The notes below the pieces were generated by a model, which had not been told where the DNA came from, did not search any database, and saw only the letters and a list, made by a program, of their open reading frames with translations. A stretch of DNA of 60,613 bases. Origin: Pseudomonadota bacterium. GTDB lineage: Bacteria > Pseudomonadota > Gammaproteobacteria > Chromatiales > Chromatiaceae. Where the stretch lies: the NCBI GenBank assembly GCA_052035915.1, contig JBPOHE010000007.1, positions 1 to 60,613 of the forward strand. The letters are read 5' to 3'. The translations under genes and the position numbers were made by a program. Shown one piece after another: positions 3,047 through 59,678 of the stretch; within the stretch, counting starts at the first letter, position 1, and the number at the start of each line of letters is the position of its first letter.

Positions 3047-3101
3047 GCTCTGTCTCCGGAATGGGGTTGAAACACTCATGGAACCGGGGCGACGGCCTGG
3101 C

Positions 3102-4298
3102 TCAGCCGTTACAGCCGACAACCTTGAACTCCACCCGCCTGTCGATGGCGTCGCGCTCATCGTTAGTACCTGTGCCGATGATGTTCTCCGTATAGCCCAG
3201 GCCCTCGGTGCGGATCTTTCTGGAACTCTCACTGGCCTCGGCCCGCAGGAGTTCCATCAATCGCTCGGCCCGCTTGAGCGAGAGCTTTTTATTATGCTCC
3301 TCGCTTCCCGAACGGCTGGCATGGCCCACGATGGTGATGCAGGAACCCGATTCCGCGATCCTTTTGGCGATCTGACGCATCCAGATCGAATATTCCGGCA
3401 GTTTGTTGTTCTTGAAAAAGTCGGTCTTGTTGACCTCGAAGAGGAATTTCACGCTGATATTCCCGGCCTGCAACCCCAACTTGGTCAGGCTGGCGAAGGC
3501 CTCTTCCGCCTCCGGCATCATTCCCAGCCGATAGAAGCATTGATAGAGTCCCGAATAGGTCTTCATCACCTGTCCATCGTCCCGTTCCGCCGCCTTGGCG
3601 AACAACCCCAGTGCCCGCCGATAATCATTCTTGTCATAGGCCGCGCTGGCCTCGTCCAGCAAGGCATTGGTGGCCAGGGTATCGAAATATTCCCTGTTCG
3701 CCATGCTGCCAGCCGCCGCCCGGGCGGTGGCGATCAGGGCATCCACCCGTTTGTCTTTGATATACATGGGGCTGTCCCGATACATGGGGGTGGGCTCGAA
3801 CTCCAACTTGGCATTGGAGATCCAGGCATCCGAATGGGCCACCACCTGGCCCGATTTGGTATTCACGATGGAGACCGTCAAGTGGGGCAACTTGGCGGCC
3901 TCGCCCCGATAGTGTTCCAGTTGCATGATGCCGCTGACGACATAGGCGGCCCTGGCAAGGTTCTCCGAGGTCATCTCCTGCAATAGGAAGCGGGGCATCT
4001 TCATCCGTGCCTGGGCCGAGATCAGTTTCTCGATGTTGCGGCTGGTGCTGGTAACCTCGCCGGTATCGGCATCGATCACCGGATCAATGACAAAAACCGC
4101 CTCCTGTTCCTTCAACTTTTCCATCAGGCTGTGCTGCTCGCTGACCTGACGGAACAGATCATCCGCCATGATGCGCACCGCCGCCTCGAACGGCAGCGGC
4201 GTGGGGCGGTACCCCCGGGGGGAGACACAGGCCGACAGGATCAGAAACAGCATCAACAAGAGAGGCAATTTATAGGTTTTCATTTCCATGGTCCGCAT
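3102..4298 (-). CDS. OmpA-family lipoprotein with TPR-like repeats
   Basis: Lipoprotein signal MKTYKLPLLLMLFLILSAC. TPR-like region YDKNDYRRALGLFAKAAE...YQCFYRLGMMPEAEEAF. C-terminal OmpA domain NKTDFF...IVGHASRSGSEEHNKKLSLKRAERLMELL. The start codon is uncertain (4283/4289/4298). Confidence 0.75.
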   Translation of the reverse strand: MRTMEMKTYKLPLLLMLFLILSACVSPRGYRPTPLPFEAAVRIMADDLFRQVSEQHSLMEKLKEQEAVFVIDPVIDADTGEVTSTSRNIEKLISAQARMKMPRFLLQEMTSENLARAAYVVSGIMQLEHYRGEAAKLPHLTVSIVNTKSGQVVAHSDAWISNAKLEFEPTPMYRDSPMYIKDKRVDALIATARAAAGSMANREYFDTLATNALLDEASAAYDKNDYRRALGLFAKAAERDDGQVMKTYSGLYQCFYRLGMMPEAEEAFASLTKLGLQAGNISVKFLFEVNKTDFFKNNKLPEYSIWMRQIAKRIAESGSCITIVGHASRSGSEEHNKKLSLKRAERLMELLRAEASESSRKIRTEGLGYTENIIGTGTNDERDAIDRRVEFKVVGCNG

Positions 4299-4408
4299 GA
4301 CTTCAGAGTGTTGTTCAGGCATCAAGGTAGAGAGGGAACTCAGAGTTTGGGAAAATTTCTGCTGCGCTTGCCAATACTTGGTCGCTCGCGAGGATTTTTC
4401 ACCAACTC

Positions 4409-5593
4409 TCAGTTTCCACATTCGCGACGGTATTCTCCGGCGCCAATCATTCCATCCTGGAAGCGCTCCAATAAGCCCCGACAGCGTGCCGACATTCCAC
4501 CCGCAGACGCTTTCGGCTGAGCAGCGGTGACGAGGGGAGCGGGTTTGAATCTCGGCTGAGCCTGGGAGACGGCCTTCACCGCCGGCTTGGATTGCGCCAC
4601 CATCGTTTCCGGCGCCTTGGATTTTGCTTTTTCCCCAGCCCCGGCGATGGGCTGGGGGGCAAGCGGCTTCGCGGCTACCGAGGGGGGCAAGGGGGCCGTA
4701 GGGGGTGTCGGAGATACAGTCGGAGTCACGGGCTGTGTCTCGATTTTCGCCAGAGCACTACAGCCGGCGAAGCAGAATTCCCCTTTCAACGAGGTGTTCT
4801 CCCAGGGCACCTGGCCGCCCTGGCTCTCCTCGACCACGGCCTCCCGCACCGACTTGAACATGGCCTCCACCGTCAGGCCGGGTTGGGCCAGGAAACGCAA
4901 CAGGTGCTTGGTATAGAGCCCGTTCGCACCGCCACCATCGGCGGCCACACCGCCCGGGGCCGTGGCATAGGCGATGAGAGACCCCACAGGTCCGCTCAGG
5001 GCGGTCAGACCCCTGTTGGTACCGCTGCGAAAGCCTTTGAAGGGATTATCCCGACAGGCATCCAGGATGAGGATGGTAACCCGGGTTCCCGCCTGTTCCG
5101 CCGCTTCGAAGACCACCCCCACATCGAGGGCGCGGTTGCGGAGTTCGGTCTTGCTGGCAATACGGGCCTGCACCGGGATCAGATAATTGTTGCCATCCGC
5201 CTGCACGCCATGGCCGGAATAGTAGAACAACCCGACGCTGTCCTTCCCGAGTCGCCGCCCGAACTCGCGCACGGCCTCTTCCATGCCGGACTGATCCGCA
5301 TTCTCGCGATAGATGACCTGGAAGCCCAGTGTTTCCAGCACCACCTTCAGGGCACGGGCATCATTGACGGGATTTCGCAACGGCGATTCTTCGTAGGTCT
5401 GATTGCCGATCACCAGGGCCAGTCGTTGCTCTTCCTGCACCCGCTTGAAGCCCCGGGTTTCACTGGGGATCGGCGCCGTCGGGGCCTGGTTTCCTTCGGC
5501 GCCAAAGATCGGTTTTGACAGGATCGCACCCAGAACGGTCAGCAACAATCCTGCCCACATCCACTTGTTCGGTCTATCCAGGGGACCGGCCAT
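4409..5593 (-). CDS. Secreted caspase-like peptidase (C14 family) with Pro-rich linker and Cys-containing C-terminal tail
   Basis: Signal peptide present. LALVIGNQTYEE...FYYSGHGVQ...ILILDACRDNPF gives the caspase His/Cys dyad. The C-terminus is Pro/Ala/Lys-rich and ends ARCRGLLERFQDGMIGAGEYRRECGN. Confidence 0.75.
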   Translation of the reverse strand: MAGPLDRPNKWMWAGLLLTVLGAILSKPIFGAEGNQAPTAPIPSETRGFKRVQEEQRLALVIGNQTYEESPLRNPVNDARALKVVLETLGFQVIYRENADQSGMEEAVREFGRRLGKDSVGLFYYSGHGVQADGNNYLIPVQARIASKTELRNRALDVGVVFEAAEQAGTRVTILILDACRDNPFKGFRSGTNRGLTALSGPVGSLIAYATAPGGVAADGGGANGLYTKHLLRFLAQPGLTVEAMFKSVREAVVEESQGGQVPWENTSLKGEFCFAGCSALAKIETQPVTPTVSPTPPTAPLPPSVAAKPLAPQPIAGAGEKAKSKAPETMVAQSKPAVKAVSQAQPRFKPAPLVTAAQPKASAGGMSARCRGLLERFQDGMIGAGEYRRECGN

Positions 5594-5798
5594 CCAACCC
5601 GCGAGATTCAAACAGCAGGCCCTCCATCAGCCTGGTTAATCAAGGGTTAAGCGCCTTCGATACCTTGGTCCAAGTATCGGCTCATAATCATAAATTCCCC
5701 AAGGTATCTTATCTATTCTATTTTCAGTGCTTCAACGGGTCGGCCCCTTACCTATCGGCTGCTTCCAATTCGTCCGCGGCTTCCATGGTCGGCTGGTT

Positions 5799-6287
5799 TC
5801 ACGAACCGGTCTCGGCCACGGCCTCGAGAAACGCATACACCAATCGATAGGTCCCTGGACGCCGACTCTCCCGGGGACCGGCGATGTTGAGTTGCGCGAT
5901 CCGATGGGTCTCGAGCCAGTCCAGCGTCCGCCGAACCGACAGGGAATCAGGACCGGCCTCGAGTTGCAGGACCAAACAGGGCCGTCCCAAGGCTTCGGCG
6001 AGAGTCAGGGTCTCCAGCGTGCCACCATCCAGGGCGCCCAGATTGAGGATGAGGGTGCCGTCGCTGTCCAGGACGTTGCGCCTGGTGCGGTCGATATACC
6101 TGGATGTCGGCATCTCGCGCAGGTTGTAGCGCGGCGGGATGGGGCCATCCTCGGCCAGGCGTCCCCGGGGACACCAGCCGCCATGGGCTAGGCCACGGTC
6201 GATGGCCCAATCCAGGGCGGCACGGTCGGCGCCGCTCTGGCCGCCCGATACTATCCGATCGACTCGTCCGAGCCTGTCCGACCTCAT
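5799..6287 (-). CDS. SLOG-domain 'putative molybdenum-carrier' (YpsA-like) protein
   Basis: IVSGGQSGADRAALDWAIDRGLAHGGWCPRGRLAEDGPIPPRY...DSDGTLIL matches the MoCo_carrier/SLOG signature. Confidence 0.7.
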   Translation of the reverse strand: MRSDRLGRVDRIVSGGQSGADRAALDWAIDRGLAHGGWCPRGRLAEDGPIPPRYNLREMPTSRYIDRTRRNVLDSDGTLILNLGALDGGTLETLTLAEALGRPCLVLQLEAGPDSLSVRRTLDWLETHRIAQLNIAGPRESRRPGTYRLVYAFLEAVAETGS

Positions 6288-6292
6288 CTCGA

Positions 6293-8425
6293 TCAGTCCA
6301 GTCGCTCCCATACCGTGAGTTCGGCCAGGCTGTGCTGGAACTTGCGTTTGGTCTCCCGGATCACGAAGGGGACATCCCTGGGTTCACCGACGAGACGGAA
6401 CCGCCGGCCGAGGATCTCGCTCATGGCGTCCAGGGTGGTCAGATTCTCCCCGTCCTTTTTGAAGCCGCCGATCCATTCGTCGCGCTCGGTGTGCTCGATC
6501 AGCCAGGTGTAGGGGGAACTGATCACCAGCAGACCGCCCGGGCGGAGACGTTCGTGGATGCCGGCCAGGAATCGGCGCGGACTGTAGAGCCGATCGATCA
6601 GATTACCAGCGAAGATAAGGTCATAGTCGGCGTAGATCGGCTTGAGATTGCAGGCATCGGCCTGGAAGAACTCGACCCTGGATTCGCTGCCCACCAGTCC
6701 CGTCTCGCTCAGGCGGCTTTCGTGGTAGGACACCAGCTCTCCCTCCTCCGGCAACACATACTGGATGTAGCCCTTGGATTTCATCTCCTCGGCGATGCGG
6801 ATGAAACGCGCCGAAAAATCCAGACCCGTAACCCGGGCGAAGCCGGTCGCCAGCTCGAAGCTGGTGCGTCCCAGGGCACAGCCTATGTCCAACGCCCGCT
6901 CCCGAGGGCGATCCCGCATCAGCTCGAGGCAGAGGCGGGCACATTCCCGCGGATAATTGGCGACGCCGAAATACTCCCGGCCCCAGTGCAACTCGCAATA
7001 CTGGGCCACCAGCACATCGGTCTCGTAATAGTCGCTACGGACCCTGACCTGATGCTCCGACTCCAGATAACGAAATCCGGCATGCTGGAAAAAATGCCGC
7101 CGGAAGGCATAGCGCGCATCCTTGGTCGCCTCGTTGCCGGTGGAGATCCAGGAACCGCCCTTGATCAGGTTGTGCTTGGTGTCGAAGGTCGGGGTGGAAA
7201 AGTCGTCGTAGAGGGGATGCACCCGGAAACCCGGAAAGCCGTTGATGGGGGTCTCGGTCCACTGCCAGACATTACCGACGACATCGTAAAAAGGTCCCTG
7301 GGGAAACTCGTCCACCGGACAGGCCGAGGCCCAGTGTTCGAGATTGATATTCCCCGGCGCGCCCCGCCAGCCGTCCACATCCGGTAGGCCGCTGAGTTCC
7401 CGCAGGCGATACCACTCCTCCTCGGTGGGCAGCCGGATCGGCTTGTCCCGGCGCGCGCCGAACCAGTTGCAGAAGGCCTTGGCCTCCAGATAGTTGACCT
7501 CAACCGGCCAATTCCAGGGCATGGGGATTTCCTCCAGCATCAGCCGCAGACGCCAATCGCCAGTCGGCTGGGGGCGCCAGAACAGGGGATGCTCGGCTTG
7601 GCGATAGCCGCGCCAGGCCCAACCTTCCTCGGTCCACCAACGGGATTCGCGATAGCCGCCATCCTCGACAAAACCCAGGTATTCGGCATTGGAGACCAAA
7701 TAACGACCGGCTCGGAAGGCCGCTATCTCCTGTTCCAGTTGGCCGTATTCGTTGTCCCAGCCGTAGAAGGGGTGATCCTTGGCCTTGCCGAGCCGGAGGA
7801 TTCCGGCGGGCACCTCGACCAAGTCATTCGGCGGTGCCTCGCCGACCTTGGGACAGACGCGCCAGAAAGGATCCGGGCGCAGCCATTCCAAGGGCAACTG
7901 CCGGATGAGCACGGAGGAGGTTTCGAGGTGGATGCGCTCGTGCTCGATACCCATCATGATGGCCCAGAACGGCGAGTCCCAATCGATGGGCAGACTCAAG
8001 GGTAATTCCCGGATGACCCGGTCCAGGGTTTGACGCACCTCTTGCCGATAGGCCCAGACCTCGGCCACCGAGGGCCAGTCGTAATGGGCCTCGTTGAGAT
8101 CGTCCCAGGACATCTCGTCCACCCCTACCGCGAAGATGGACTCGAATCTCGGGTTGATACGCTCGGACAGCCGCTTCGCCAGCACCAGTTTGTTGATAAA
8201 AAACACCGCGGTGTGACCGAGGTAGAAAATGAGCGGGTGACGCAGGAGATCCGCCTTGCGATAGTAGGCCTCATCCCTGGCCAGGGTGGCGAAGAGCCGT
8301 TCGTAGATATCGAAGCTGGCGTGGAAATAGCGGCGGATGCTTTCCCGCTTGGCGTCGGGATCTCCCGAACGCAGGTCGGGCGTATAGGCGGGTTCGAGGT
8401 CTAATGACATGATCAATTCTCGCAA
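6293..8425 (-). CDS. ovoA: 5-histidylcysteine sulfoxide synthase (ovothiol biosynthesis) OvoA
   Basis: Three-domain architecture. DinB-like N-terminus with HERIHLETS. FGE-sulfatase-like middle region (GGSWISTG...RYAFRRHFFQHAGFRYL). C-terminal class I SAM methyltransferase (LDIGCALGRTSFELA). Length 710 aa. Confidence 0.85.
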   Translation of the reverse strand: MRELIMSLDLEPAYTPDLRSGDPDAKRESIRRYFHASFDIYERLFATLARDEAYYRKADLLRHPLIFYLGHTAVFFINKLVLAKRLSERINPRFESIFAVGVDEMSWDDLNEAHYDWPSVAEVWAYRQEVRQTLDRVIRELPLSLPIDWDSPFWAIMMGIEHERIHLETSSVLIRQLPLEWLRPDPFWRVCPKVGEAPPNDLVEVPAGILRLGKAKDHPFYGWDNEYGQLEQEIAAFRAGRYLVSNAEYLGFVEDGGYRESRWWTEEGWAWRGYRQAEHPLFWRPQPTGDWRLRLMLEEIPMPWNWPVEVNYLEAKAFCNWFGARRDKPIRLPTEEEWYRLRELSGLPDVDGWRGAPGNINLEHWASACPVDEFPQGPFYDVVGNVWQWTETPINGFPGFRVHPLYDDFSTPTFDTKHNLIKGGSWISTGNEATKDARYAFRRHFFQHAGFRYLESEHQVRVRSDYYETDVLVAQYCELHWGREYFGVANYPRECARLCLELMRDRPRERALDIGCALGRTSFELATGFARVTGLDFSARFIRIAEEMKSKGYIQYVLPEEGELVSYHESRLSETGLVGSESRVEFFQADACNLKPIYADYDLIFAGNLIDRLYSPRRFLAGIHERLRPGGLLVISSPYTWLIEHTERDEWIGGFKKDGENLTTLDAMSEILGRRFRLVGEPRDVPFVIRETKRKFQHSLAELTVWERLD

Positions 8426-8608
8426 AGGGCCGCTGTCGGGCGATCCGCTGGCGGCTTCAAGTGTAGCGACGATTCTAAGCCGTCCATCCTGATCGGTGAA
8501 ACACCCATCGAGGGCAACAACGCCCTTATTCCGCTGAGAAATATTTGCCTGGATCTGGCCTGGGAACTAGAGTCAGAGTAAAGAACCTCCCCCATCAGGA
8601 GCCGGCCC

Positions 8609-9604
8609 ATGCGCACCCGTCGTCTCGGTAACACGGACCTCCAGCTTTCCTGCATCGGCCTGGGAACCTGGGCCATCGGTGGTCCCTGGGACTTCGGTTG
8701 GGGGCCGCAATCGGACGAGGATTCGATCTCCACCATACGTCGGGCGCTGGACCTGGGCGTCAATTGGATCGACACCGCCCCCGTCTACGGTCTCGGGCAC
8801 GCCGAACTGGTCGTGGGCCGGGCCATCAACGGACGACGCGACAAGGTCATCATCGCCACCAAATGCGGTCTGGTGTGGGACGAATGCCCCCAGCGCAAGT
8901 TATGCGGCCGACTCAAGGCGGAAAGCATCAAGCGGGAGGCGGAAAACAGCCTGCGACGGCTGGGTATCGAGACCATCGACCTCTATCAGGTCCACTGGCC
9001 GAATCCCGAACCCGATATCGAAGAGGCTTGGTCGGCCATCGGGGAGCTGATCGCCGAGGGCAAGATCCGTTATGCCGGGGTCGCCAACTTCTCCGTGGCC
9101 CAGATGGAACGACTTCAAGCCATCCACCCCATCGCCTCCCTGCAACCGCCTTACAGCCTGCTGGATCGGGCCGTCGAGAGCGAATTGCTGCCCTATTGCG
9201 TAGCCCAGGGTATCGGCATCGTGGCCCACGGCCCCATGGCCTATGCCCTCTTGACCGGGAAGTTCAGCCACTCCTATATCGCCACCCTGCCCGCCGACGA
9301 CTGGCGCCGTCGGGGCGGTTGCTTCCAGGAACCCGAACTCAGCGCCAACCTGGCGTTCGTCGACAAGCTCAAGACCCTCGCCGAACGCCGCGGCCATCAG
9401 GTGGCCCATCTCGCCATCGCCTGGGTGCTGCGCCGACCCGAGGTGACCGCCGCCATCGTCGGCGCGCGTCGCCCCCAGCAGATCGAACAAACCCATGCCG
9501 CCGCCTCTCTGGATTGGCTGCCGGAAGATCTGGAGACCATTGAGGCCTGGCTGGCCGAGCGGGATCGGATCATCAGCACCCATATAGCCTGCTCCCCGGT
9601 GTGA
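8609..9604 (+). CDS. Aldo/keto reductase
   Basis: MRTRRLGNTDLQLSCIGLGTWAIGG...IDTAPVYG... gives the AKR fold over 331 aa. The stop codon abuts the MITE. Confidence 0.85.
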   Translation: MRTRRLGNTDLQLSCIGLGTWAIGGPWDFGWGPQSDEDSISTIRRALDLGVNWIDTAPVYGLGHAELVVGRAINGRRDKVIIATKCGLVWDECPQRKLCGRLKAESIKREAENSLRRLGIETIDLYQVHWPNPEPDIEEAWSAIGELIAEGKIRYAGVANFSVAQMERLQAIHPIASLQPPYSLLDRAVESELLPYCVAQGIGIVAHGPMAYALLTGKFSHSYIATLPADDWRRRGGCFQEPELSANLAFVDKLKTLAERRGHQVAHLAIAWVLRRPEVTAAIVGARRPQQIEQTHAAASLDWLPEDLETIEAWLAERDRIISTHIACSPV

Positions 9605-9754
9605 TACCATTTCTTGATAGGTATTATCGATATTCGTAGGCTGGTGTTGAGGCGCGAAGCGCTGAAACCCAGCTTCTGAGTAGCTGGGATTCGCTTCGCT
9701 CATCGCCAGCCTACCCCATGACTTTCAGGCGGATAAACTAATAGGAAATGGTAT
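9604..9754. mobile_element. MITE-A copy 1 (151 bp, TIR ATACCATTTC/GAAATGGTAT), left boundary of low-GC islet
   Basis: Near-identical to 14639-14792. It has perfect 10-bp terminal inverted repeats and an internal long palindrome (GCGAAGCGCTGAAACCCAGC...), with a 5-6 bp deletion relative to copy 2. Confidence 0.65.
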
Positions 9755-9970
9755 GAGATCCTCTTCCGATCCCTGATCAACACTGGACACCAGCACGCGA
9801 CCGGGGGTGAAGGGGAAGCTGATAACAATGTTTATGTACTAATGATATTTTGTTGAATATTTTTATGTAGCAATGCTTCTACCGCCCATGCCCGGGGCCT
9901 TTTGGGTCGATAAGCGGGTTGTCGTCGCCGGCTCGTCCTTCTCGGACTCTATCCAGCATGAGAGAACACC

Positions 9971-10372
9971 ATGAGCATCGAAGAGGAACATCAAGACGTC
10001 CTGCAGAATATCGAGTTCGTCGTCACCCAGATCTATAGACGCCATCCAACATTGACCGACTACGGCGTTCTGCGCGCCTACGAGGCCCTGGTTCAAACCT
10101 ATACCGCGGAACTCTCGGGACGTCCGCCGAAGCCGTTGATGTTACAAGGAGGGCCTGAAGGGGTGATGCTGGAGAACCTCAGAATCATCTGTGAATGGCG
10201 TCTGGGTCGGATCAACAGGCCAAACGCCGCGGGCCGGGGAGAACAGTCAGAGCCCATTGATATTCCGACCCTGATTCAATGCCTGAAAAGGCTCATCAAG
10301 TCCGTCAACAAGTGGAACAAAAGCGGCGGCCAACAAGGGTACCTGCACTTCATGACGCAATTTATCCATTGA
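9971..10372 (+). CDS. Hypothetical protein (islet cargo)
   Basis: A 133-aa ORF preceded by an AT-rich promoter-like stretch. No recognisable motif. Confidence 0.4.
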   Translation: MSIEEEHQDVLQNIEFVVTQIYRRHPTLTDYGVLRAYEALVQTYTAELSGRPPKPLMLQGGPEGVMLENLRIICEWRLGRINRPNAAGRGEQSEPIDIPTLIQCLKRLIKSVNKWNKSGGQQGYLHFMTQFIH

Positions 10373-10687
10373 GGGCTCGGACGACAGGCCGATCGGCCTG
10401 TGGTGGGTTGGCTTCGCTTATCAGCCTCACCAAGAGACGGCTGCCTCAGCCCTCTATACGCTGGTTCCCAAGCTCCAGCTTGGGAACCACTGCGTGGCAA
10501 GCTCTTGCTTACCGACCTTCGACATTCCCAAGGAGGACCTTGGGAACGAGCGGACCTCCTGTCATCACTGCTTGACTGTGAACAACTCCTCTTCAGGGTT
10601 CACGATGTTTGCATGTGCGATTGCCCTGTTGATGGTGGCGATTAAACATGCGTGCGATTAGGCTACGCCAATCGCACCTACGGCCCT

Positions 10688-10972
10688 TTAATACACCTCG
10701 TCGTGGGTGCCAATATCATGCAAAATGATGACTTCACATCCTGTTTTCTCATCGATTTCAATGGAGAAAACAATGCGGCAATCATAGCCACGGGAGCAGG
10801 CCCACAATCCCAGCAGAGCACCGCTAAGTTTATGCGTTCACGGGGCAGGCGCAAATACATCCGCCTGCATTCGCCGAAGCACCTCATCAATATAATCTTG
10901 CAACTTGGGAGTCTGTTTTCCAAATTTCCGATAGGCTCGCCGAAATCTTGGCGTGATAACCAACAGCCTCAT
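10688..10972 (-). pseudogene. RelE/ParE-family toxin interrupted by an in-frame TGA at codon 45
   Basis: The minus-strand translation reads MRLLVITPRFRRAYRKFGKQTPKLQDYIDEVLRRMQADVFAPAP*THKLSGALLGLWACSRGYDCRIVFSIEIDEKTGCEVIILHDIGTHDEVY. The C-terminal half (HKLSG...IGTHDEVY) is the conserved RelE/YafQ-type core. The ATG overlaps the antitoxin stop (ATGA). It is not in the ORF track because of the stop. Confidence 0.6.
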
Positions 10973-11199
10973 TCATCATCCTCAAGCGTCCGATGCAACT
11001 CGGCAATGGCCTCTTCTGCAGATTGCGCCTTGAATTGGCCATCGCGGAAAGCCGCTATTGACTTATTAGCATCGACCATGATTTCCTGCCGCCGGGTTTC
11101 AATCCGGCGCTTGCTTAGAATGTCGATCAGCATTTCTTGCTGATCTGGCGGAAGTTGCAAAACGGTATTAATGGCTTGATCCAAGGTTATGGCATTCAT
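10969..11199 (-). CDS. Addiction-module antitoxin (TIGR02574-like)
   Basis: MNAITLDQAINTVLQLPPDQQEMLIDILSKRR... contains the LxLPxxxRxxL hallmark of this antitoxin family. It sits directly upstream of the RelE-like pseudogene. Confidence 0.55.
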   Translation of the reverse strand: MNAITLDQAINTVLQLPPDQQEMLIDILSKRRIETRRQEIMVDANKSIAAFRDGQFKAQSAEEAIAELHRTLEDDE

Positions 11200-11392
11200 C
11201 GTTTCCACAATCTCCTTGCTTTCATTACAGCCGTAGAAGGTACGCGATGCGTACCCTACGAGGCTCTCCTGCGTCACGCATGCGTTCGGGTGGGATCATG
11301 AGTTCTAACGCCTGCCTCAGCCGCGAGCGTAGCGAGTCGTCTGGAGGCGCATGTTAGGAAATTACGTGTATTCTCTGGTTGCATTCAGCGTC

Positions 11393-11441
11393 GTTGGATG
11401 TTGGGTTGGCGATACGGCCGCCAACCCAACCTATGGTGCTG
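11393..11441. repeat. REP-like palindrome GTTGGGTTG-N-CAACCCAAC
   Basis: GTTGGGTTGGCGATACGGCCGCCAACCCAAC. The same palindrome type recurs at 59335-59430. Confidence 0.4.
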
Positions 11442-11477
11442 GGTCCGAGTGAAAGCGCAGGTTAGCTTTCAAATTCA

Positions 11478-11729
11478 TCAGTAGATTTCTCGACGATGGC
11501 CTATTGCAATAACGATCACAACTAACTGTTCGTCGTGGATTTCGTAGATGACTCTGAAATCGCCAATTCGGATTCGCCACGCATCTCTACCTGTGAGTTT
11601 CTTGCTGCCGACTGGTCTTGGATTGTGGGAAAGCGCTTTTACCTGATCAGCAATCTCTGCTCGACGGACTTTATCAATTTTTGCAAGGGACTTCTGCGCG
11701 CTTCGAGTGATTGAGATCGATTAGCTCAT
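11478..11729 (-). pseudogene. RelE-family toxin with nonsense mutation at codon 3 (ATG AGC TAA)
   Basis: The minus-strand reads MS*SISITRSAQKSLAKIDKVRRAEIADQVKALSHNPRPVGSKKLTGRDAWRIRIGDFRVIYEIHDEQLVVIVIAIGHRREIY. The downstream 80 aa are a full-length RelE core (compare E. coli RelE ...YRLVYQVIDEKVVVFVISVGKRERSEVY). The ATG overlaps the antitoxin stop. Codon 3 is an aromatic residue in homologs (TAY to TAA). Confidence 0.65.
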
Positions 11730-11932
11730 GAGCTGACATCAGTATCTATCTCGTTCAGTGCCTGATCAAAAGGGATTATCTCGTCGCTAGTGAGTTTAGC
11801 TTCGTCGTAAGCCTTTATGTCTTCGAGTTCCTCTATGGCGCTGAGGATTTCCCGCCATTCATTAATGGGTAAGACTACGGACTTAGGAGTCTGATTAGAG
11901 TCGACAATGTATTCTGGATGAAGAATGTTCAT
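11726..11932 (-). CDS. Phd/YefM-family antitoxin
   Basis: VVLPINEWREILSAIEELEDIKAYDEAK is a typical Phd/YefM/RelB-like antitoxin of 68 aa. The stop overlaps the RelE pseudogene start. Confidence 0.7.
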   Translation of the reverse strand: MNILHPEYIVDSNQTPKSVVLPINEWREILSAIEELEDIKAYDEAKLTSDEIIPFDQALNEIDTDVSS

Positions 11933-12040
11933 GGTGTGTACCTATTGTAACCACGCTTCGGATTTCGACTAGTTTAGTAGGTCGAAAAAACACAGTGTTG
12001 CCCGACATTTTATAGAAGATGTCGGGCACAGGTGCCCGAC

Positions 12041-13159
12041 CTACCGGGCTGTCTTCACTCTATGTTTTTCGTAGGCTTCCATTTTGTATCTTTCTAAAGA
12101 CTCAATAACCAGTTTACTGACTGTGCTTCTGGTTAATCCTTCTTCATTTGCTTCTAATCTGAGCATCGAAAGATTAAGCGTCAACTCGCCCCCCGCAGAC
12201 TCATCCTTATCAGAAAACTCAAATAGTATTCTGCATGTTCCAGAGCAATTATCGCCTTCAAACTCATAATCACATTGAAGCCCGAACAATCGGATATACG
12301 GATGAATGGATTTATCACTGACGAAAAATGTCGAGTGAAGCCCCTGTCCCTTCATCTTCATGTCTTCGATCTTATCCTTCATCCACGCAATATTCTGCGG
12401 CGGGTTAGCAACGCTGTGATCTGGTGAAAAATGAATGTCCCTGGTGTCAACAAAGCGCAGCATTGAGTGACTTACGTTTTGGGTGAGATCATTCATAAAT
12501 TGTACGCGTGATTCATTCGTGAAGTCTGAATACCTGATTATTGTTACGCCGACACTTTGTTTGATGTGCCCTTCGCTTTTGAAGTGCTTTATCAAAGCAC
12601 TTGAGACTTTGTTTCCGAAGTCGATTGTTTCTGGTGCGGTATGGCTTAGCGAAATGTTTAAGGACTTACCATCGTTGCTTTTCCGTATTTCAACACGGCC
12701 CCCATGTGTGACTGTGTTTTCTCCCCAGTTCTTAACTGGATCACGTCTATCAATCTCGAAATCCATGTAGATGTGATCTGGATTATCATTTGATGCAGTA
12801 AAATTTGACATACTTGAAAGACTGAATACACCAAACTGGTCATTCAGAAGAGTCTCGTAGTCAGCCATATCTGGCAAAGACTCAAGCAAGTTGGATTCAG
12901 AATCCCAGCTAATAGTGCGAGTTTTAGATTTTGGCGATTCCTCTTTTGTCCTATAGCTCTCGCGCAAGTCCACGTACTCAAAGGGAGACAGCCCGGTCTT
13001 GATGAGAATGGGGCCTAGAACTTCCTTCTGATCTGACCCTGTAAATACCCCTCTTGCGCGCAAAACGTTTTTTAATTCGGCGTTCTTAACCTTTGTCTGG
13101 CCAATTAGCTGGCGCAAAAAATCCCTAGTAGGAAGCAAGACCTCTTCGTTGTTATTCAT
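12041..13159 (-). CDS. Hypothetical protein B of islet two-gene operon (372 aa, no recognisable domain)
   Basis: About 42-45% GC against a roughly 63% background. It overlaps the upstream gene by 8 nt (translational coupling). No Walker, HEPN, TIR or SIR2 motifs were seen. Confidence 0.6.
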   Translation of the reverse strand: MNNNEEVLLPTRDFLRQLIGQTKVKNAELKNVLRARGVFTGSDQKEVLGPILIKTGLSPFEYVDLRESYRTKEESPKSKTRTISWDSESNLLESLPDMADYETLLNDQFGVFSLSSMSNFTASNDNPDHIYMDFEIDRRDPVKNWGENTVTHGGRVEIRKSNDGKSLNISLSHTAPETIDFGNKVSSALIKHFKSEGHIKQSVGVTIIRYSDFTNESRVQFMNDLTQNVSHSMLRFVDTRDIHFSPDHSVANPPQNIAWMKDKIEDMKMKGQGLHSTFFVSDKSIHPYIRLFGLQCDYEFEGDNCSGTCRILFEFSDKDESAGGELTLNLSMLRLEANEEGLTRSTVSKLVIESLERYKMEAYEKHRVKTAR

Positions 13160-14102
13160 TATTCAAGCTCCTGTAGTCTGGCCGAAAGCTAGCTACTTTT
13201 ATCCGGGTAAAGATATCGCTCTCAAAACCTGTGGCAGCCCTCTTGACTGCATCACCATGACTAGACTCAACATAATTAGGAAATAGAAACAGCAACGTGC
13301 AACTCATGTCTTGAGTGTATTCTTTGGCTGCTTGGATTAGCCTGCGCAGAGAGTCTTGCGCAAAACCTTCTATGGTAGACAGACAGAAAATATCCTGATC
13401 ATGCCGGGACTGTGCCTTAATGATTAGCGGAATCAAAGGTGAGGTCAGAAATTCAAGCGGACATACCTTTCCATATCTCGATATGGTTTTGTCAACATAA
13501 CTTAGTGAAGTCTCAGGATAATAAAAGTGCAGGCGATCGGAGTCGTACTCATGTCTCAAATACTGCACGGTGTCGAATATAAAGTTTATTCTCTGATTAT
13601 CAACCACATGAAACGACTCAAAGCTCCAATCGGAATCAAGTTGTGAGTTTGCAATTTTTGATACGACATCATCATATGTTTCTTCGTTACTCGATAGCCA
13701 GAACAATACCCCGGAATCCCTACTTTTCGTTGTTCGCCCCAACAATTCCTGCTGTTGCTTTTTTAACTCTGAATGTTTGTAACACTCCAAGGTTTCGACT
13801 AAGTCCTTGGCGTGCGATTTGAAAGTCGACTTTGGATTGTTTTCGTACGGGTTTTGTGAATGCTTAACAGATATTACCGCGCTTTCGGCAGTCGAGCCTT
13901 CAAGTGGGCTTCTATAGCAGTACAAATAGTCAATTCCATGTGTTTCTCTTTTTCCAGTCTTTGACCCTTCACTGGCATGTTTGCTTGGCTTTCTACATGG
14001 CAGTTCTTGCCCAGATAAAACGCCTTCCCACCCCAATAAATGGAAGAAATTGCCAACGATATTCTCGCCAATTTCTCCAATTTTTTTAGATTTTTCACCC
14101 AT
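13152..14102 (-). CDS. Hypothetical protein A with N-terminal PD-(D/E)xK (Mrr/Hjc-like) nuclease signature, 316 aa
   Basis: The N-terminal approx. 85 aa read IGEIGENIVGNFFHLLGWEG...THGIDYLY...ESAVISVKH. This fits the E...D...(E/S)xK pattern of restriction-endonuclease-like folds. The remaining approx. 230 aa are unassigned. It is the first gene of the operon, with an AT-rich promoter region upstream (14103-14220). Confidence 0.55.
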   Translation of the reverse strand: MGEKSKKIGEIGENIVGNFFHLLGWEGVLSGQELPCRKPSKHASEGSKTGKRETHGIDYLYCYRSPLEGSTAESAVISVKHSQNPYENNPKSTFKSHAKDLVETLECYKHSELKKQQQELLGRTTKSRDSGVLFWLSSNEETYDDVVSKIANSQLDSDWSFESFHVVDNQRINFIFDTVQYLRHEYDSDRLHFYYPETSLSYVDKTISRYGKVCPLEFLTSPLIPLIIKAQSRHDQDIFCLSTIEGFAQDSLRRLIQAAKEYTQDMSCTLLFLFPNYVESSHGDAVKRAATGFESDIFTRIKVASFRPDYRSLNNE

Positions 14103-14503
14103 TGCAAGTTCCTTTCACCAATCTGCGGGTTGGATTTTTATGCATAACATGTAATCGACGACATCGTCTTCCTACCAAAAGTATCTAAATCTAGATACCA
14201 ACCCTTACCCCAATGGTCCTCCATCAGCTCCCACCCTGGATCCCAACCCCGGGGCTACGGCATTTTCGTAGCCTGACTTCCACAACCGCGGATGAGGTCG
14301 CCATATCCATCCAGCCTGATTGACCTCGTTGCGCCGATCGATCTCCCAATATTCCACCCGAGCTGTACGCCACGCAGGCCGGGCACTTTATGGGATGCCC
14401 GACATTTTCCATTGAATCCCTGGACAAGGCCAGGCTTTGGCCCAACCTTCTACATCACTCCCTAACAGCTGAGATAACCTTGAAGAGTCAGGTTTTGGCG
14501 TTC

Positions 14504-14622
14504 CCGGGCATGGGCGGTTTAGCCCGATTTTTCCTTCTCCTAGAGAGAACAATGCCCCATCATGAATGGGCATATGTTCTCTTTAGAAGAACGAAGAATG
14601 GCCGTTTGGGGCCCATGCCCGG
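14504..14622. mobile_element. MITE-C family copy (C7)
   Basis: TIRs CCGGGCATGGGCGG.../...GGCCCATGCCCGG flank an AT-rich core GAGAACAAT-N20-ATGTTCTC-N6-AGAAC. Confidence 0.5.
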
Positions 14623-14638
14623 AACCTGGAAGGGCCTC

Positions 14639-14792
14639 ATACCATTTCTCGATAGGTATTATCGATATTCGTAGGCTGGTGTTGAGGCGCGAAGCGCTGA
14701 AACCCAGCTTCTCAGTAGCTGGGTTTCAGCGCTTCGCTCATCGCCAGCCTACCCCATGGCTTTCAGGCGGATAAACTAATAGGAAATGGTAT
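14639..14792. mobile_element. MITE-A copy 2 (154 bp), right boundary of low-GC islet
   Basis: A direct repeat of 9604-9754 with intact TIRs and a perfect internal 21-bp-arm palindrome. Confidence 0.65.
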
Positions 14793-14861
14793 CAGCGACT
14801 AGCTCGGCCATCCTTTGCCGAGGTTCCCTGAAACACCCGAGCCCTTCCCCGCGACCAAGGC

Positions 14862-16409
14862 TCAAGGATTCACCGCCAAGGGCGCCTCGAAGTGTTGGGT
14901 GGTGAAGACCTCGAAGGCGGCGCCTTCCTTCCAGGCGTCCTCCGGCAGACCAGCCTTGCGCGCCAGATGAGAGAGGGTTTGTTCCCGATTCCAACCCTGT
15001 TCCCGGGCCACTTCGGGGAGAAAAACCGCGCTCCGACCTTCCTTGTGCAGGATGATGCCGTGCACACCGGGCTGGAAGTCCTCGACTGAGGGGATGGACT
15101 GGGGCGGGCTGAGCACGCTGACGGTTAGTTCCAGCTCTTTCAATTCCTCCGGCTGCACCGGCGGGAAGCGGTAATCCTGCTGAGCGGCGTTGAGGCCGTT
15201 GAGGATCACTGCCCGATACAGGGGCTCCTTGGGCAGGATGTAGCCGATGCAACCGCGCAGCTCGCCATGTTTCTTCAGGGTGACGAAGGCCCCCGAGGGT
15301 TGACGACCGGCCTCCGGCATCTCGGCCAGGAGTCTTTCATAGTCCGCTGCGATGCCGCTTTGGGGTAGCACGGCATCGATGACCGCGATCCGGGCCAATC
15401 GATGCAGCCAGGGCAGCAGTTCCGGAGTCGGGGCCGTCTCGGCGCGCTTGGGCGCGGCGGCCTTGGACAGAGGGGCCGGATCATAGACGCCGATGCTGAG
15501 GTAACTGACCGAATGGTCCCATTGCTGGGTCAAGGCGCCGCTGGTGTCGTATTGGATCAGCTCGACCTTGGAGCCGGGATTGAGCAGATGGACCAGGATC
15601 AGCAAAGGGGAGAGACCGCAGGCGGTAATGCCGGTACGCCTATGGTATTCCGCCAGGCCTGGGGCATCCTGTTTGGTGATAAATTCAAAGGCCCCCAGAT
15701 CGAGGTTCCGCAGGCGCTCGGGCAATTGCTGATCCGGCGGGAAAGGCAGATAGTCGTATCTGGGACCGTAGTGGGTGAAGTCGCCGGAGATCAGCAACAG
15801 GCTGGTGTCGTCCAACAAAGGGCGCAGCAACTCGGCGGCAGCGGCATAGTCCTGTTCCTCCATGACACCGACGAGTACGGGCAGGAGTTGCCAGCCCGGG
15901 GCCAGACTGCGTTGCAGGAAGGGAAGCTGGATCTCCAGGCTATGTTCGCCCAGGCGGATCGCCTCGTCTCCATGCACCAGGGGTGATGCCCGCAAGGTGG
16001 CGATCGCCGCCGTATCCAGGGGGATGCTGCCCAGAGGAGTGGCATAGTGACTGGCTTCTGGTATCGCCAGACCACGAAAGCCACCGCCATGGGCCGGTCC
16101 AACGGCGATCACCCGTTTCAGTGCCCGCCCCTGGAGCTGGATATACCCCTTGGCCGCGGTGGCGCCTGAATATTGATACCCGGCATGGGGACTCACCAAT
16201 GCCCGCAGCTCGGTGGGCGGCGGGCTGGGGGCCGGTCCGGCCTGCTTGAGCAACTGGTCGATAATCTCCTGGAGTTGGGCCGGCTCCTGCGGATACCAGT
16301 AGCCGGCGATGGCCGAGGGCCGGATGGAGTCGGCGTAGACCGTACCCAGTCCCCAGAACAACCCCAGACAGAGTCCCAGAAAACCCCAGCGCATTGGATC
16401 TCGCCTCAT
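14862..16409 (-). CDS. Fused AmmeMemoRadiSam system proteins B (MEMO1-like) and A (AMMECR1 domain), secreted/periplasmic
   Basis: Signal peptide present. AGYWYP...LVSPHAGYQYSG...VIAVGPAH is the MEMO part. The C-terminal LKKHGELRGCIGYILP is the AMMECR1 hallmark. The start was trimmed to the ATG after the SD GGGGAGGGGGAG. The upstream part of the ORF is GC-rich read-through. Confidence 0.8.
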   Translation of the reverse strand: MRRDPMRWGFLGLCLGLFWGLGTVYADSIRPSAIAGYWYPQEPAQLQEIIDQLLKQAGPAPSPPPTELRALVSPHAGYQYSGATAAKGYIQLQGRALKRVIAVGPAHGGGFRGLAIPEASHYATPLGSIPLDTAAIATLRASPLVHGDEAIRLGEHSLEIQLPFLQRSLAPGWQLLPVLVGVMEEQDYAAAAELLRPLLDDTSLLLISGDFTHYGPRYDYLPFPPDQQLPERLRNLDLGAFEFITKQDAPGLAEYHRRTGITACGLSPLLILVHLLNPGSKVELIQYDTSGALTQQWDHSVSYLSIGVYDPAPLSKAAAPKRAETAPTPELLPWLHRLARIAVIDAVLPQSGIAADYERLLAEMPEAGRQPSGAFVTLKKHGELRGCIGYILPKEPLYRAVILNGLNAAQQDYRFPPVQPEELKELELTVSVLSPPQSIPSVEDFQPGVHGIILHKEGRSAVFLPEVAREQGWNREQTLSHLARKAGLPEDAWKEGAAFEVFTTQHFEAPLAVNP

Positions 16410-26415: not shown

Positions 26416-26531
26416 CCGGGCCTGGGCTGAAAAGCGCTGGTTTCTGTTCTCATTAGGAGAACAATGCGGCCTGTAGAAAGGCATTGTTCTCGATTGGAGA
26501 ACAAAAAACCGGGCCAAAGCGCCCTGGCCCG
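26416..26531. mobile_element. MITE-C family copy (C2)
   Basis: CTGTTCTC-N5-GAGAACAAT-N19-ATTGTTCTC-N5-GAGAACA with GC-rich arms CCGGGCC.../CCGGGCCAAAGCGCCCTGGCCCGG. Confidence 0.5.
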
Positions 26532-26812
26532 GAAGCGTCAAAAGACGAACTGGCCGGCCATGAAGGTCGCCGCCAGGCCCGCCTGGCCGGCGGCGAACCT
26601 GATGGCTCCAACGACTCCGGCTCCGTCCCGACCTCCCAGGGCTCATCTTCCCAGGCCAGCCAGGCCTCCATCCGCTGTTGTCGCGCGTCCCTCTCCAATT
26701 GGCGCCGATCCCTGTGCGCCCCGCCCTTGCGCAGCAAGGGCGATTTGGCCGCCAGATTACGTATCTTCACCCCTTTCATACTTTCTCTCCCAAGGCCACT
26801 GAAAGCCTTCAC

Positions 26813-34164: not shown

Positions 34165-34244
34165 GCAGAGTAGGTCGGCAATCCTTTGCCGACACTCCCT
34201 GATCGGCATCAAATGGCGGCAAGGGGTTGCCGCCCTACGAACTC
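34165..34244. repeat. REP-B element copy 2
   Basis: Same sequence as 25648-25727 with 2-3 mismatches. Confidence 0.6.
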
Positions 34245-52446: not shown

Positions 52447-52485
52447 GTCGCCCGATCCTGGCGGCTCCGGGAAGGGGACCGCGTA

Positions 52486-52567
52486 GCAGAGTAGGTCGGC
52501 AATCCTTTGCCGACCCCCCCCCTGATCGGCATCAAATGGCGGCAAGGGGTTGCCGCCCTACGAGCTC
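52486..52567. repeat. REP-B element copy 3, flanked by a 20-bp direct repeat
   Basis: TCCGGGAAGGGGACCGCGTA lies before the element and TCCGGGAAGGAAACCGCGTA after it, consistent with a target-site duplication. Confidence 0.6.
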
Positions 52568-52666
52568 CGGGAAGGAAACCGCGTAATCGGATGGAGGCGG
52601 ACGGGGGCCACGAAGGTGTGGCTGAGAAAAAGACTCAGCAGGAATCGGTATTCGAGTTCGGGTGTT

Positions 52667-52784
52667 CCGGGCATCGACGGCCAATGGCCGATTTCCGTTC
52701 TAATACAGAGAACAATATATCAATATCTCGCGGTATTGTTCTCTAATGGAGAACAAAAACCGGCCCAACACAGCCAGGCCCGGG
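52667..52784. mobile_element. MITE-C family copy (C5)
   Basis: CCGGGCATCGACGG...CGTTCT-N6-GAGAACAAT-N20-ATTGTTCTC-N5-GAGAACA...CCGGCCCAACACAGCCAGGCCCGG. Confidence 0.5.
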
Positions 52785-52906
52785 AGGCTCTCCCAACCAC
52801 CAGGGGCCAAATCCAAATCTGATTGGCCAGTTATTTCAGCGAGAGAGGGATGTGCCGTCACTCCCCTCGCCCGTTTGCGGGAGAGGGGAGCTGGACGGTT
52901 ACAAGA

Positions 52907-59430: not shown

Positions 59431-59678
59431 ACGATACTTGTTAGGCCATTTTCAGGTTTCATAATTTAGCTTGGTCCCTTTTCAACTTTTCCCAAACGGA
59501 TCAGCTCGCGTAGCTCCGATTAGCGACAGCGTAATCGGAGGAATGTAGCTTTCATGCGTGCGATTACACTAGGGTAATCGCACCTACGGTCCTTTGGTGG
59601 TTGCACGTGCAAGCCTCCTAACACGTTCAAATTAACCGGCCTGCGCGGCTTTTCGCGCAGGTCCGATTGAATGCTGGG

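Follow-up and report, generated by a model that had tools for sequence, protein, structure and literature searches.

Two MITE insertions, very probably independent, at the borders of a small strain-variable defence islet in an uncultured gammaproteobacterium

The islet and its borders

The contig JBPOHE010000007.1 of an uncultured gammaproteobacterium of the Chromatiaceae (assembly GCA_052035915.1) was analysed over positions 1 to 60,613, a stretch referred to here as the window. A very small islet of about 5 kb of accessory genes lies there between a gene for an aldo/keto reductase (AKR) and a gene encoding a Memo/AMMECR1 fusion, and each border of the islet carries a copy of the same short palindromic element, a MITE (miniature inverted-repeat transposable element), the right one 70 nt from the Memo/AMMECR1 gene. 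From left to right, the islet holds a gene for a 133-aa protein, two toxin-antitoxin modules and a two-gene operon matching the anti-phage system GAPS4 (Table 1). As stated in an initial annotation of this DNA, the islet is richer in AT than its surroundings: GC content is 0.41–0.56 between the MITE copies, with a minimum of 0.41–0.44 across 11.6–14.2 kb, against 0.60–0.67 in the flanks. No transposase or integrase was found among the long open reading frames (ORFs) of the window; the other long ORFs look like housekeeping genes.

The initial annotation had described two direct, palindromic copies of about 150 bp, confined to these two places in the window, and this description holds. Alignment of the copies with their flanks yields sharp edges of identity at ATACCATTTC...GAAATGGTAT, with 4 substitutions and one 3-nt indel across 151/154 nt (about 96% identity). 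A 41-nt probe allowing up to 3 mismatches hits two places only, where shuffled sequences lead one to expect 0, and neither the probe nor BLAST finds a third copy in the 60.6-kb window. The element has no coding capacity (149–152 nt; overlapping ORFs enter from flanking DNA), and the right copy, folded as single-stranded DNA, reaches -50.4 kcal/mol (z = -11 versus shuffles). The terminal inverted repeats, given initially as 10 bp, are real, their true length being 9 bp: the outer A and T are part of a 3-bp target duplication, as is evident from the empty site and the survey of copies described below.

A recently active family of non-autonomous elements

Further copies were sought in metagenomes with the 21-mer at the left end of the MITE. 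The scan gave 49 stretches, almost every one of which belongs to one of two assemblies from activated sludge (WBZP01 and Ga0268298); they amount to 41 distinct MITE sites. Related contigs are designated here by L numbers. The source lineage is represented by fragmented metagenome contigs, and copy number per genome and contig-to-strain linkage are therefore not proven. The triplet TNA lies directly 5' of the element at 40 of the 41 sites, and a perfect 3-bp TNA duplication encloses 20 of the 26 complete copies (TGA in 6, TAA in 6, TTA in 5 and TCA in 3). The 9-bp terminal inverted repeats, TACCATTTC and GAAATGGTA, are perfect in nearly all copies. Single copies depart from the 149-nt consensus at 0–5 positions, 7 being identical to it, and only about 8 sites are shared between contig sets. 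TNA also flanks longer variants (about 210 nt) whose right ends differ slightly. At either side of the islet, short-read contigs stop after entering the element by 25–53 nt, as is expected of contigs that run into a repeat. The element is a genuine multi-copy, recently active, non-autonomous MITE, and its initial identification as such is upheld by the 41 sites, the inverted repeats, the TNA duplication and the empty sites. As to whether it is a ubiquitous intergenic repeat, a doubt raised at the outset, copies are indeed many and dispersed; some have one low-GC flank, from which no association with variable regions is claimed. In 185,579 species-representative genomes the same 21-mer gave one chance match only, inside an Ignavibacteriales gene.

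The initial annotation had called for a count of copies and for the cognate transposase. The former gave the 41 metagenomic sites; as to the latter, neither the window, nor related contigs totalling about 580 kb, searched for a terminal-repeat pair 500–3000 nt apart with a TNA duplication, nor the species-representative genomes, scanned with the 21-mer, yielded an autonomous insertion sequence (IS) with these ends, and collapsed repeats in the assembly could hide such an element. Two sorts of candidate for the parent IS were rejected: a 524-nt stretch in L041 consists of a MITE and a solo end, and six matches to the left end only are MITEs interrupted by an IS621-like element (see below). A 3-bp TNA duplication is typical of some subgroups of the IS5 family (IS1031/IS427-type in ISfinder). 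Judged by its duplication, the MITE is probably mobilised in trans, the enzyme being an IS5-family-type DDE transposase with its gene at another place in the genome.

The duplicated TNA serves as the stop codon of an ORF 80 or more codons long in 6 of 23 non-redundant copies (window 9602-9604; L028, L049, L061, L067 and L068), which is suggestive at most of stop codons as insertion sites. All four TNA triplets read TAA or TGA on one or the other strand, and insertion at a stop codon therefore preserves the end of the reading frame. A few complete copies have mismatched, though TNA-like, flanks: L026 (TAA/TCA), L031 (TGA/TAA), L033 and L030/L040. This suggests recombination between MITE copies elsewhere in the genome. 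In L039, an IS3-like element is inserted at nt 113 of the MITE.

Separate insertion of the two copies

Each of the two copies in the window has its own matching target duplication, TGA/TGA on the left and TCA/TCA on the right, and the outermost triplets of the pair, TGA and TCA, are not the same. Contigs of related strains, obtained by exact-protein look-ups, include a precise empty site for the left copy. Contig L001 (WBZP01009845.1), 99% identical to the window over 5708-9604 and 9750-12050, reads ...CCGGTG TGA GATCC..., where the window reads ...CCGGTG TGA (TACCATTTC...GAAATGGTA) TGA GATCC...; it thus keeps the adjacent 2.3 kb of the islet after the AKR gene despite missing the left copy. 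Comparison of the two sequences defines the element proper as 149 nt on the left, with TGA duplicated at insertion, and the duplicated triplet is the TGA stop codon of the AKR gene (9602-9604). The empty site ...GGTG TGA GATCC... is shared by L001 and L007, and the left copy is also absent from the more divergent strains L093-L098. The comparison with related strains proposed initially has therefore produced the same gene order without the left MITE, the right copy being present in every informative contig, among them L017, another contig of WBZP01, the metagenome assembly to which L001 belongs; the copy occupies the same site there.

The left and right copies have different private substitutions, which are shared with their orthologues in other strains and form no chimeric pattern. 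Since these substitutions differ, each copy derives from the family consensus and not from the other. The two copies are independent insertions, and it is highly probable that they flank an islet which was strain-variable before they arrived, an arrangement that would then be ordinary. They would have landed separately on either side of an existing accessory region between the AKR and Memo/AMMECR1 genes. The right copy appears to be the older, as it is present in all haplotypes seen; the left copy would have inserted later, exactly at the TGA stop codon of the AKR gene, which was preserved by the duplication.

Exchange of cargo inside the islet

Four haplotypes of the locus were distinguished. 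In the window (H1) both MITE copies are present and the cargo is GAPS4. In H2 (L001 and L017) only the right copy is present, and the cargo is a gene for a 571-aa AriA/OLD/GajA-like ATPase (PADLOC AriA, E 5e-23), with an intact ParE gene and duplicated repeat modules; this haplotype was assembled from two contigs of one metagenome assembly, and their linkage in a single strain is not proven. H3 (L027) has both copies, together with a BrnT/BrnA-like pair (BrnT E 2e-27) and a 152-aa gene of unknown function. H4 (L093) has no left copy and no 133-aa gene, and the right copy was not seen in it.

The breakpoints common to H1–H3 lie at window positions 12050 and 14185. Strain-to-strain differences therefore fall inside the islet (12051-14184) and not at the MITEs, and in H3 the cargo has changed while both copies persist. 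Short-read contigs also break at 12016-12022, which fits the coexistence of several haplotypes in one sample. The islet is a small strain-variable hotspot for defence and toxin-antitoxin genes where the unit of exchange hardly exceeds the operon, and haplotypes H1–H4 bear out the initial view of the DNA between the copies as strain-variable accessory DNA. Cargo is exchanged at internal breakpoints adjoining short palindromic repeats, the most likely route being uptake of foreign DNA followed by homologous recombination within the conserved framework. A second strain-variable segment was noted near the islet: a gene pair encoding an OmpA-domain protein and a peptidase C14 (caspase-like) protein (window 3072-5814) is absent from L003, L093 and L094.

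Table 1. Features of the islet, its borders and associated repeats (window positions unless a contig is named)
Feature	Position	Strand	Remarks
AKR gene	8609..9604	+	Pfam PF00248, E 5e-77; left islet boundary
Left MITE copy	9605..9753	+	149 nt, TACCATTTC...GAAATGGTA; duplication TGA at 9602-9604 and 9754-9756; presence strain-dependent
133-aa gene	9971..10372	+	No family match; in haplotypes H1-H3, absent from the more distant L093 strain
Palindromic-repeat mosaic, 290 nt	10398..10687		Duplicated in L001; sub-units recur elsewhere in the genome
RelE/StbE-like toxin pseudogene	10688..10972	-	In-frame stop at codon 45
Putative antitoxin, 76 aa	10969..11199	-	No significant family match; assigned by position only; gene calls in L001, L079
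Repeat module with attC-like look, 137 nt	11305..11441		Also in L001 (at cargo breakpoint) and L057; attC not supported
ParE toxin pseudogene	11478..11729	-	Stop at codon 3; otherwise 82/83 identical to intact L001 gene
RelB-like antitoxin, 68 aa	11726..11932	-	Intact; PF18506, E 8e-8
Structured palindromic element, 82 nt	11969..12050		Left breakpoint of cargo exchange; fold z -4.8 and -6.2
GAPS4b	12041..13159	-	372 aa; NF047934, 383 bits (cut-off 300); PF26110
Strain-variable cargo segment	12051..14184		GAPS4 here; other genes in H2, H3
GAPS4a	13152..14102	-	316 aa; PD-(D/E)xK nuclease; NF047933, 349 bits (cut-off 270); PF26115
Framework DNA	14185..14636		97% conserved in all haplotypes seen; holds ~125-nt repeat copy 14496-14626
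Right MITE copy	14640..14791	+	152 nt; private 3-nt CAG insertion; duplication TCA at 14637-14639 and 14792-14794
Memo/AMMECR1 fusion gene	14862..16409	-	Right islet boundary
~125-nt palindromic repeat copies	14496-14626, 26480-26543, 52664-52785		Also at ~30 of the MITE loci
Interrupted MITE left ends	L035 5585-5701, L038, L042, L044, L048 10954-11185, L053		

The initial annotation had listed, besides the 133-aa gene, an operon of two genes A and B; both are present, and the operon can now be named more precisely. From the precomputed Pfam and NCBIfam assignments of its two genes, it is GAPS4, a known system against phages, described as a DNase defence system set off by breaks in DNA (bioRxiv 10.1101/2025.09.07.674715). 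Local Pfam and PADLOC sets, which contain no GAPS4 models, gave no match for the operon. The HGxD...SxK nuclease motif described for GapS4a (bioRxiv 10.1101/2025.09.07.674715) can be read from the translation near the N-terminus, as H55-G-I-D58 ... S78-V-K80. At the DNA level, the segment 12054-14148 has 83% identity with a GAPS4 operon that belongs to an unrelated genome with a GC content of 47% (L089 9956-12049, Ga0491192_0000220), and homology between the two stops within 4 and 37 nt of the breakpoints. This similarity, together with the GC content of the GAPS4 DNA (about 42%), points to a foreign origin of this cargo. The L089 operon sits between HigB/HigA and ParD modules among catabolic genes, with no MITE beside it, and from its surroundings again looks like a bare operon-sized insert adjoining toxin-antitoxin pairs.

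Two RelE-type toxin-antitoxin modules had also been predicted in the islet. The modules are there; both of their toxin genes have premature stops in the window. The RelE-like sequence, when repaired, matches TIGR02385 weakly (25 bits, under the cut-off of 27.9). Its counterpart in L001 (5026-5217) is frameshifted at a different place from the stop in the window, and was therefore inactivated independently. The intact ParE copy of L001 matches PF05016. In L082 (539-1591) and L087 (573-1124), an IS630-family transposase gene (DDE_3) lies just downstream of a truncated islet ParE gene.

Short repeats at the breakpoints

The spacers between the islet genes are mosaics of short palindromic repeats that are also found elsewhere in the genome. 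The 82-nt element at the left breakpoint takes in the final three sense codons of GAPS4b together with its stop codon. In four contexts the element ends abruptly at ...CCTACCGGGCT, and in H3 it stands before both cassettes. At the right breakpoint, upstream of GAPS4a, lies the palindrome GTATCTAAATCTAGATAC (window 14143-14200), and four to five related palindromes of the form TATCTA-NNN-TAGATA occupy the same place in H3 (L027 4492-4620); they could be operator or recombination sites. Near the end of the window, a gene for a protein with an Mrr-type restriction endonuclease domain (183 aa, PF04471; 59679-60230) adjoins a 43-nt copy (59553-59595) of one of the small hairpin repeats of the islet.

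It is tempting to speculate that the islet repeats, and chiefly the 82-nt element, are junction sites of a cassette exchange that is neither integron- nor transposon-based, although we consider this unlikely. In that case, small modules for defence and of the toxin-antitoxin type would be swapped at the boundaries of repeats in this repeat-rich genome, with the MITEs, and the IS621-like element targeting them, as additional participants in one repeat ecosystem.

An integron-like array, in which the islet modules would be cassettes between attC-type sites exchanged by an integrase encoded elsewhere, seems less likely still. To the eye, the stretch 11298-11355 has the look of such a site (TTCTAAC...imperfect palindrome with extra bases...GTTAGGA), a second copy (GGCTAAC...GTTAGGC) lies at the cargo breakpoint in L001, and the modules are single genes or small operons, toxin-antitoxin pairs included; the sharp end of the 82-nt element in four contexts would also suit cassettes. 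However, the attC-like stretch folds no better than shuffled sequences (z about 0 on both strands), the strict pair RYYYAAC...GTTRRRY is absent from the islet, the third copy (L057) has lost its left box, GTT/AAC boxes are missing from the 82-nt element, an integrase gene was found neither in the window nor in the flanking contigs L002 and L017, and the same small repeats occur outside the islet. The attC reading of 11298-11355 was rejected, short of a formal exclusion, on the folding, the strict box scan and the absence of an integrase.

Did the MITEs bring in the islet?

The initial annotation had proposed that the MITE pair accounts for the islet, either as a composite element mobilised in trans or as an insertion produced by recombination between MITE copies. 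Either course, transposition as a unit or recombination between copies, would leave individual copies with mismatched flanks, and here the flanks match.

In a composite transposon, both MITEs and the intervening DNA would have moved together through a transposase acting on the outermost inverted repeats. Two direct, near-identical copies do enclose AT-rich accessory genes, and cases of integrons and resistance genes mobilised by flanking MITEs are on record for other bacteria (PMC10969869). The TGA and TCA at the outer ends of the pair, with a matching duplication at each copy, nevertheless contradict such a unit, as do the precise empty site beside 2.3 kb of retained islet, the position of the variable part within the islet and the occurrence of the GAPS4 operon in another genome with no neighbouring MITE, and we regard this origin as very improbable. 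Homologous integration, by which a circular molecule with one MITE would have recombined into a resident MITE and left the insert between direct copies, would suit their orientation and their identity of about 96%, and the mismatched flanks at L026 (TAA/TCA) and L031 (TGA/TAA) suggest that copies do recombine in this genome, but it is equally hard to credit here, since it predicts mismatched flanks at these two copies, the islet exists without the left one, and distinct private substitutions run along their whole length with no sign of chimeras.

Independent insertion of the two MITEs on either side of an existing islet thus remains our explanation, and several points weigh against it. The linkage of L001 and L017 in one strain is not proven, these being fragmented metagenome contigs. 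No autonomous IS was found, so the transposase family is deduced from the duplication alone. No relative outside the lineage keeps the synteny: the nearest AKR homologues there (69–70% identity) do not share it, and an ancestral islet-free state was therefore not observed. The PurA protein, for its part, has no more than 77% identity with those of Sedimenticolaceae and Chromatiaceae MAGs. Finally, the 82-nt element has an identical, abrupt end in four contexts, and this could indicate that cargo is exchanged by a site-specific process instead of plain homologous recombination.

An IS621-like element and other repeats associated with the MITE

Six separate MITE copies are interrupted at one and the same position, after nt 36 (...ATTCGTAG|ATACTGTTATCC...). 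The end of the interrupting element encodes a transposase C-terminus 64–67% identical to IS110/IS621 transposases; only one junction of these insertions is visible, where contigs break. The MITE appears to be the preferred target of this IS621-like element of the bridge-RNA type.

A second family of palindromic repeats, of about 125 nt, is more abundant than the MITE (ends CCGGGCATGGGC.../...GCCCATGCCCGG; fold z -5.8). Since its copies usually lie 40–300 nt from a MITE copy, the two families gather in shared intergenic regions. The window also has two copies of an 80-nt repeat (34165-34244 and 52485-52568), and a third is in L017 (1912-1991). In one haplotype (L027 1084-1204), a 121-nt insertion with inverted ends of about 25 nt (CGCTCTTCCTGCGTTTCGGAC...GTCCGAAACGCAGGAAGAGC) lies upstream of the 133-aa gene, between positions corresponding to window 9849 and 9858, and is probably another small mobile repeat.

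Significance and comparison with known systems

Identical repeats around foreign genes do not by themselves make a composite transposon; target duplications and empty sites decide. The present data document a MITE family that duplicates TNA and was recently active in an uncultured gammaproteobacterium from activated sludge, a compact chromosomal hotspot in which GAPS4, an AriA/OLD-like ATPase and toxin-antitoxin modules replace each other among co-occurring strains, and a MITE into which an IS621-like element appears to insert by preference. All three are of kinds already known. Of the points left hanging, the most interesting are the cassette junctions bounded by repeats and the repeated targeting of the MITE by the IS621-like element.

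The element resembles the prokaryotic MITEs derived from the IS5 family in that it is small and non-coding, has inverted repeats, a TNA duplication and a strong internal hairpin, exists in dispersed, near-identical copies and is present or absent between strains; it differs from them in that neither a cognate transposase nor a full-length IS was found for it. With the known MITE-flanked mobilisable units, the MITE-bracketed integrons and resistance genes (PMC10969869), the locus shares the layout only, two direct MITE copies enclosing accessory genes; here, unlike there, each copy has its own duplication, the left copy is missing beside retained cargo, and the islet was not seen as a unit elsewhere.

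Like chromosomal defence-island hotspots, in which exchangeable cargo sits amid conserved core genes, the islet lies between flanking genes that stay fixed; its defence or toxin-antitoxin cargo alternates among strains that co-occur, its GC content is low and its toxin genes are decaying. Unlike them, it is very small, has no integrase or other mobility gene, and has its breakpoints beside palindromic repeats. Its GAPS4 operon agrees with that of Mahata et al. (bioRxiv 10.1101/2023.03.28.534373, 10.1101/2025.09.07.674715) in its two overlapping genes, in scores above the NCBIfam cut-offs and in the nuclease motif, whereas it resides in a chromosomal hotspot of an uncultured activated-sludge gammaproteobacterium and not in a GMT island, and its activity there is predicted. 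IS621/IS110-family elements that insert into repetitive palindromes likewise use a single fixed position of the repeat, as was seen here in six copies; while that targeting is of REP (repetitive extragenic palindromic) sequences, the target in this lineage is a MITE.

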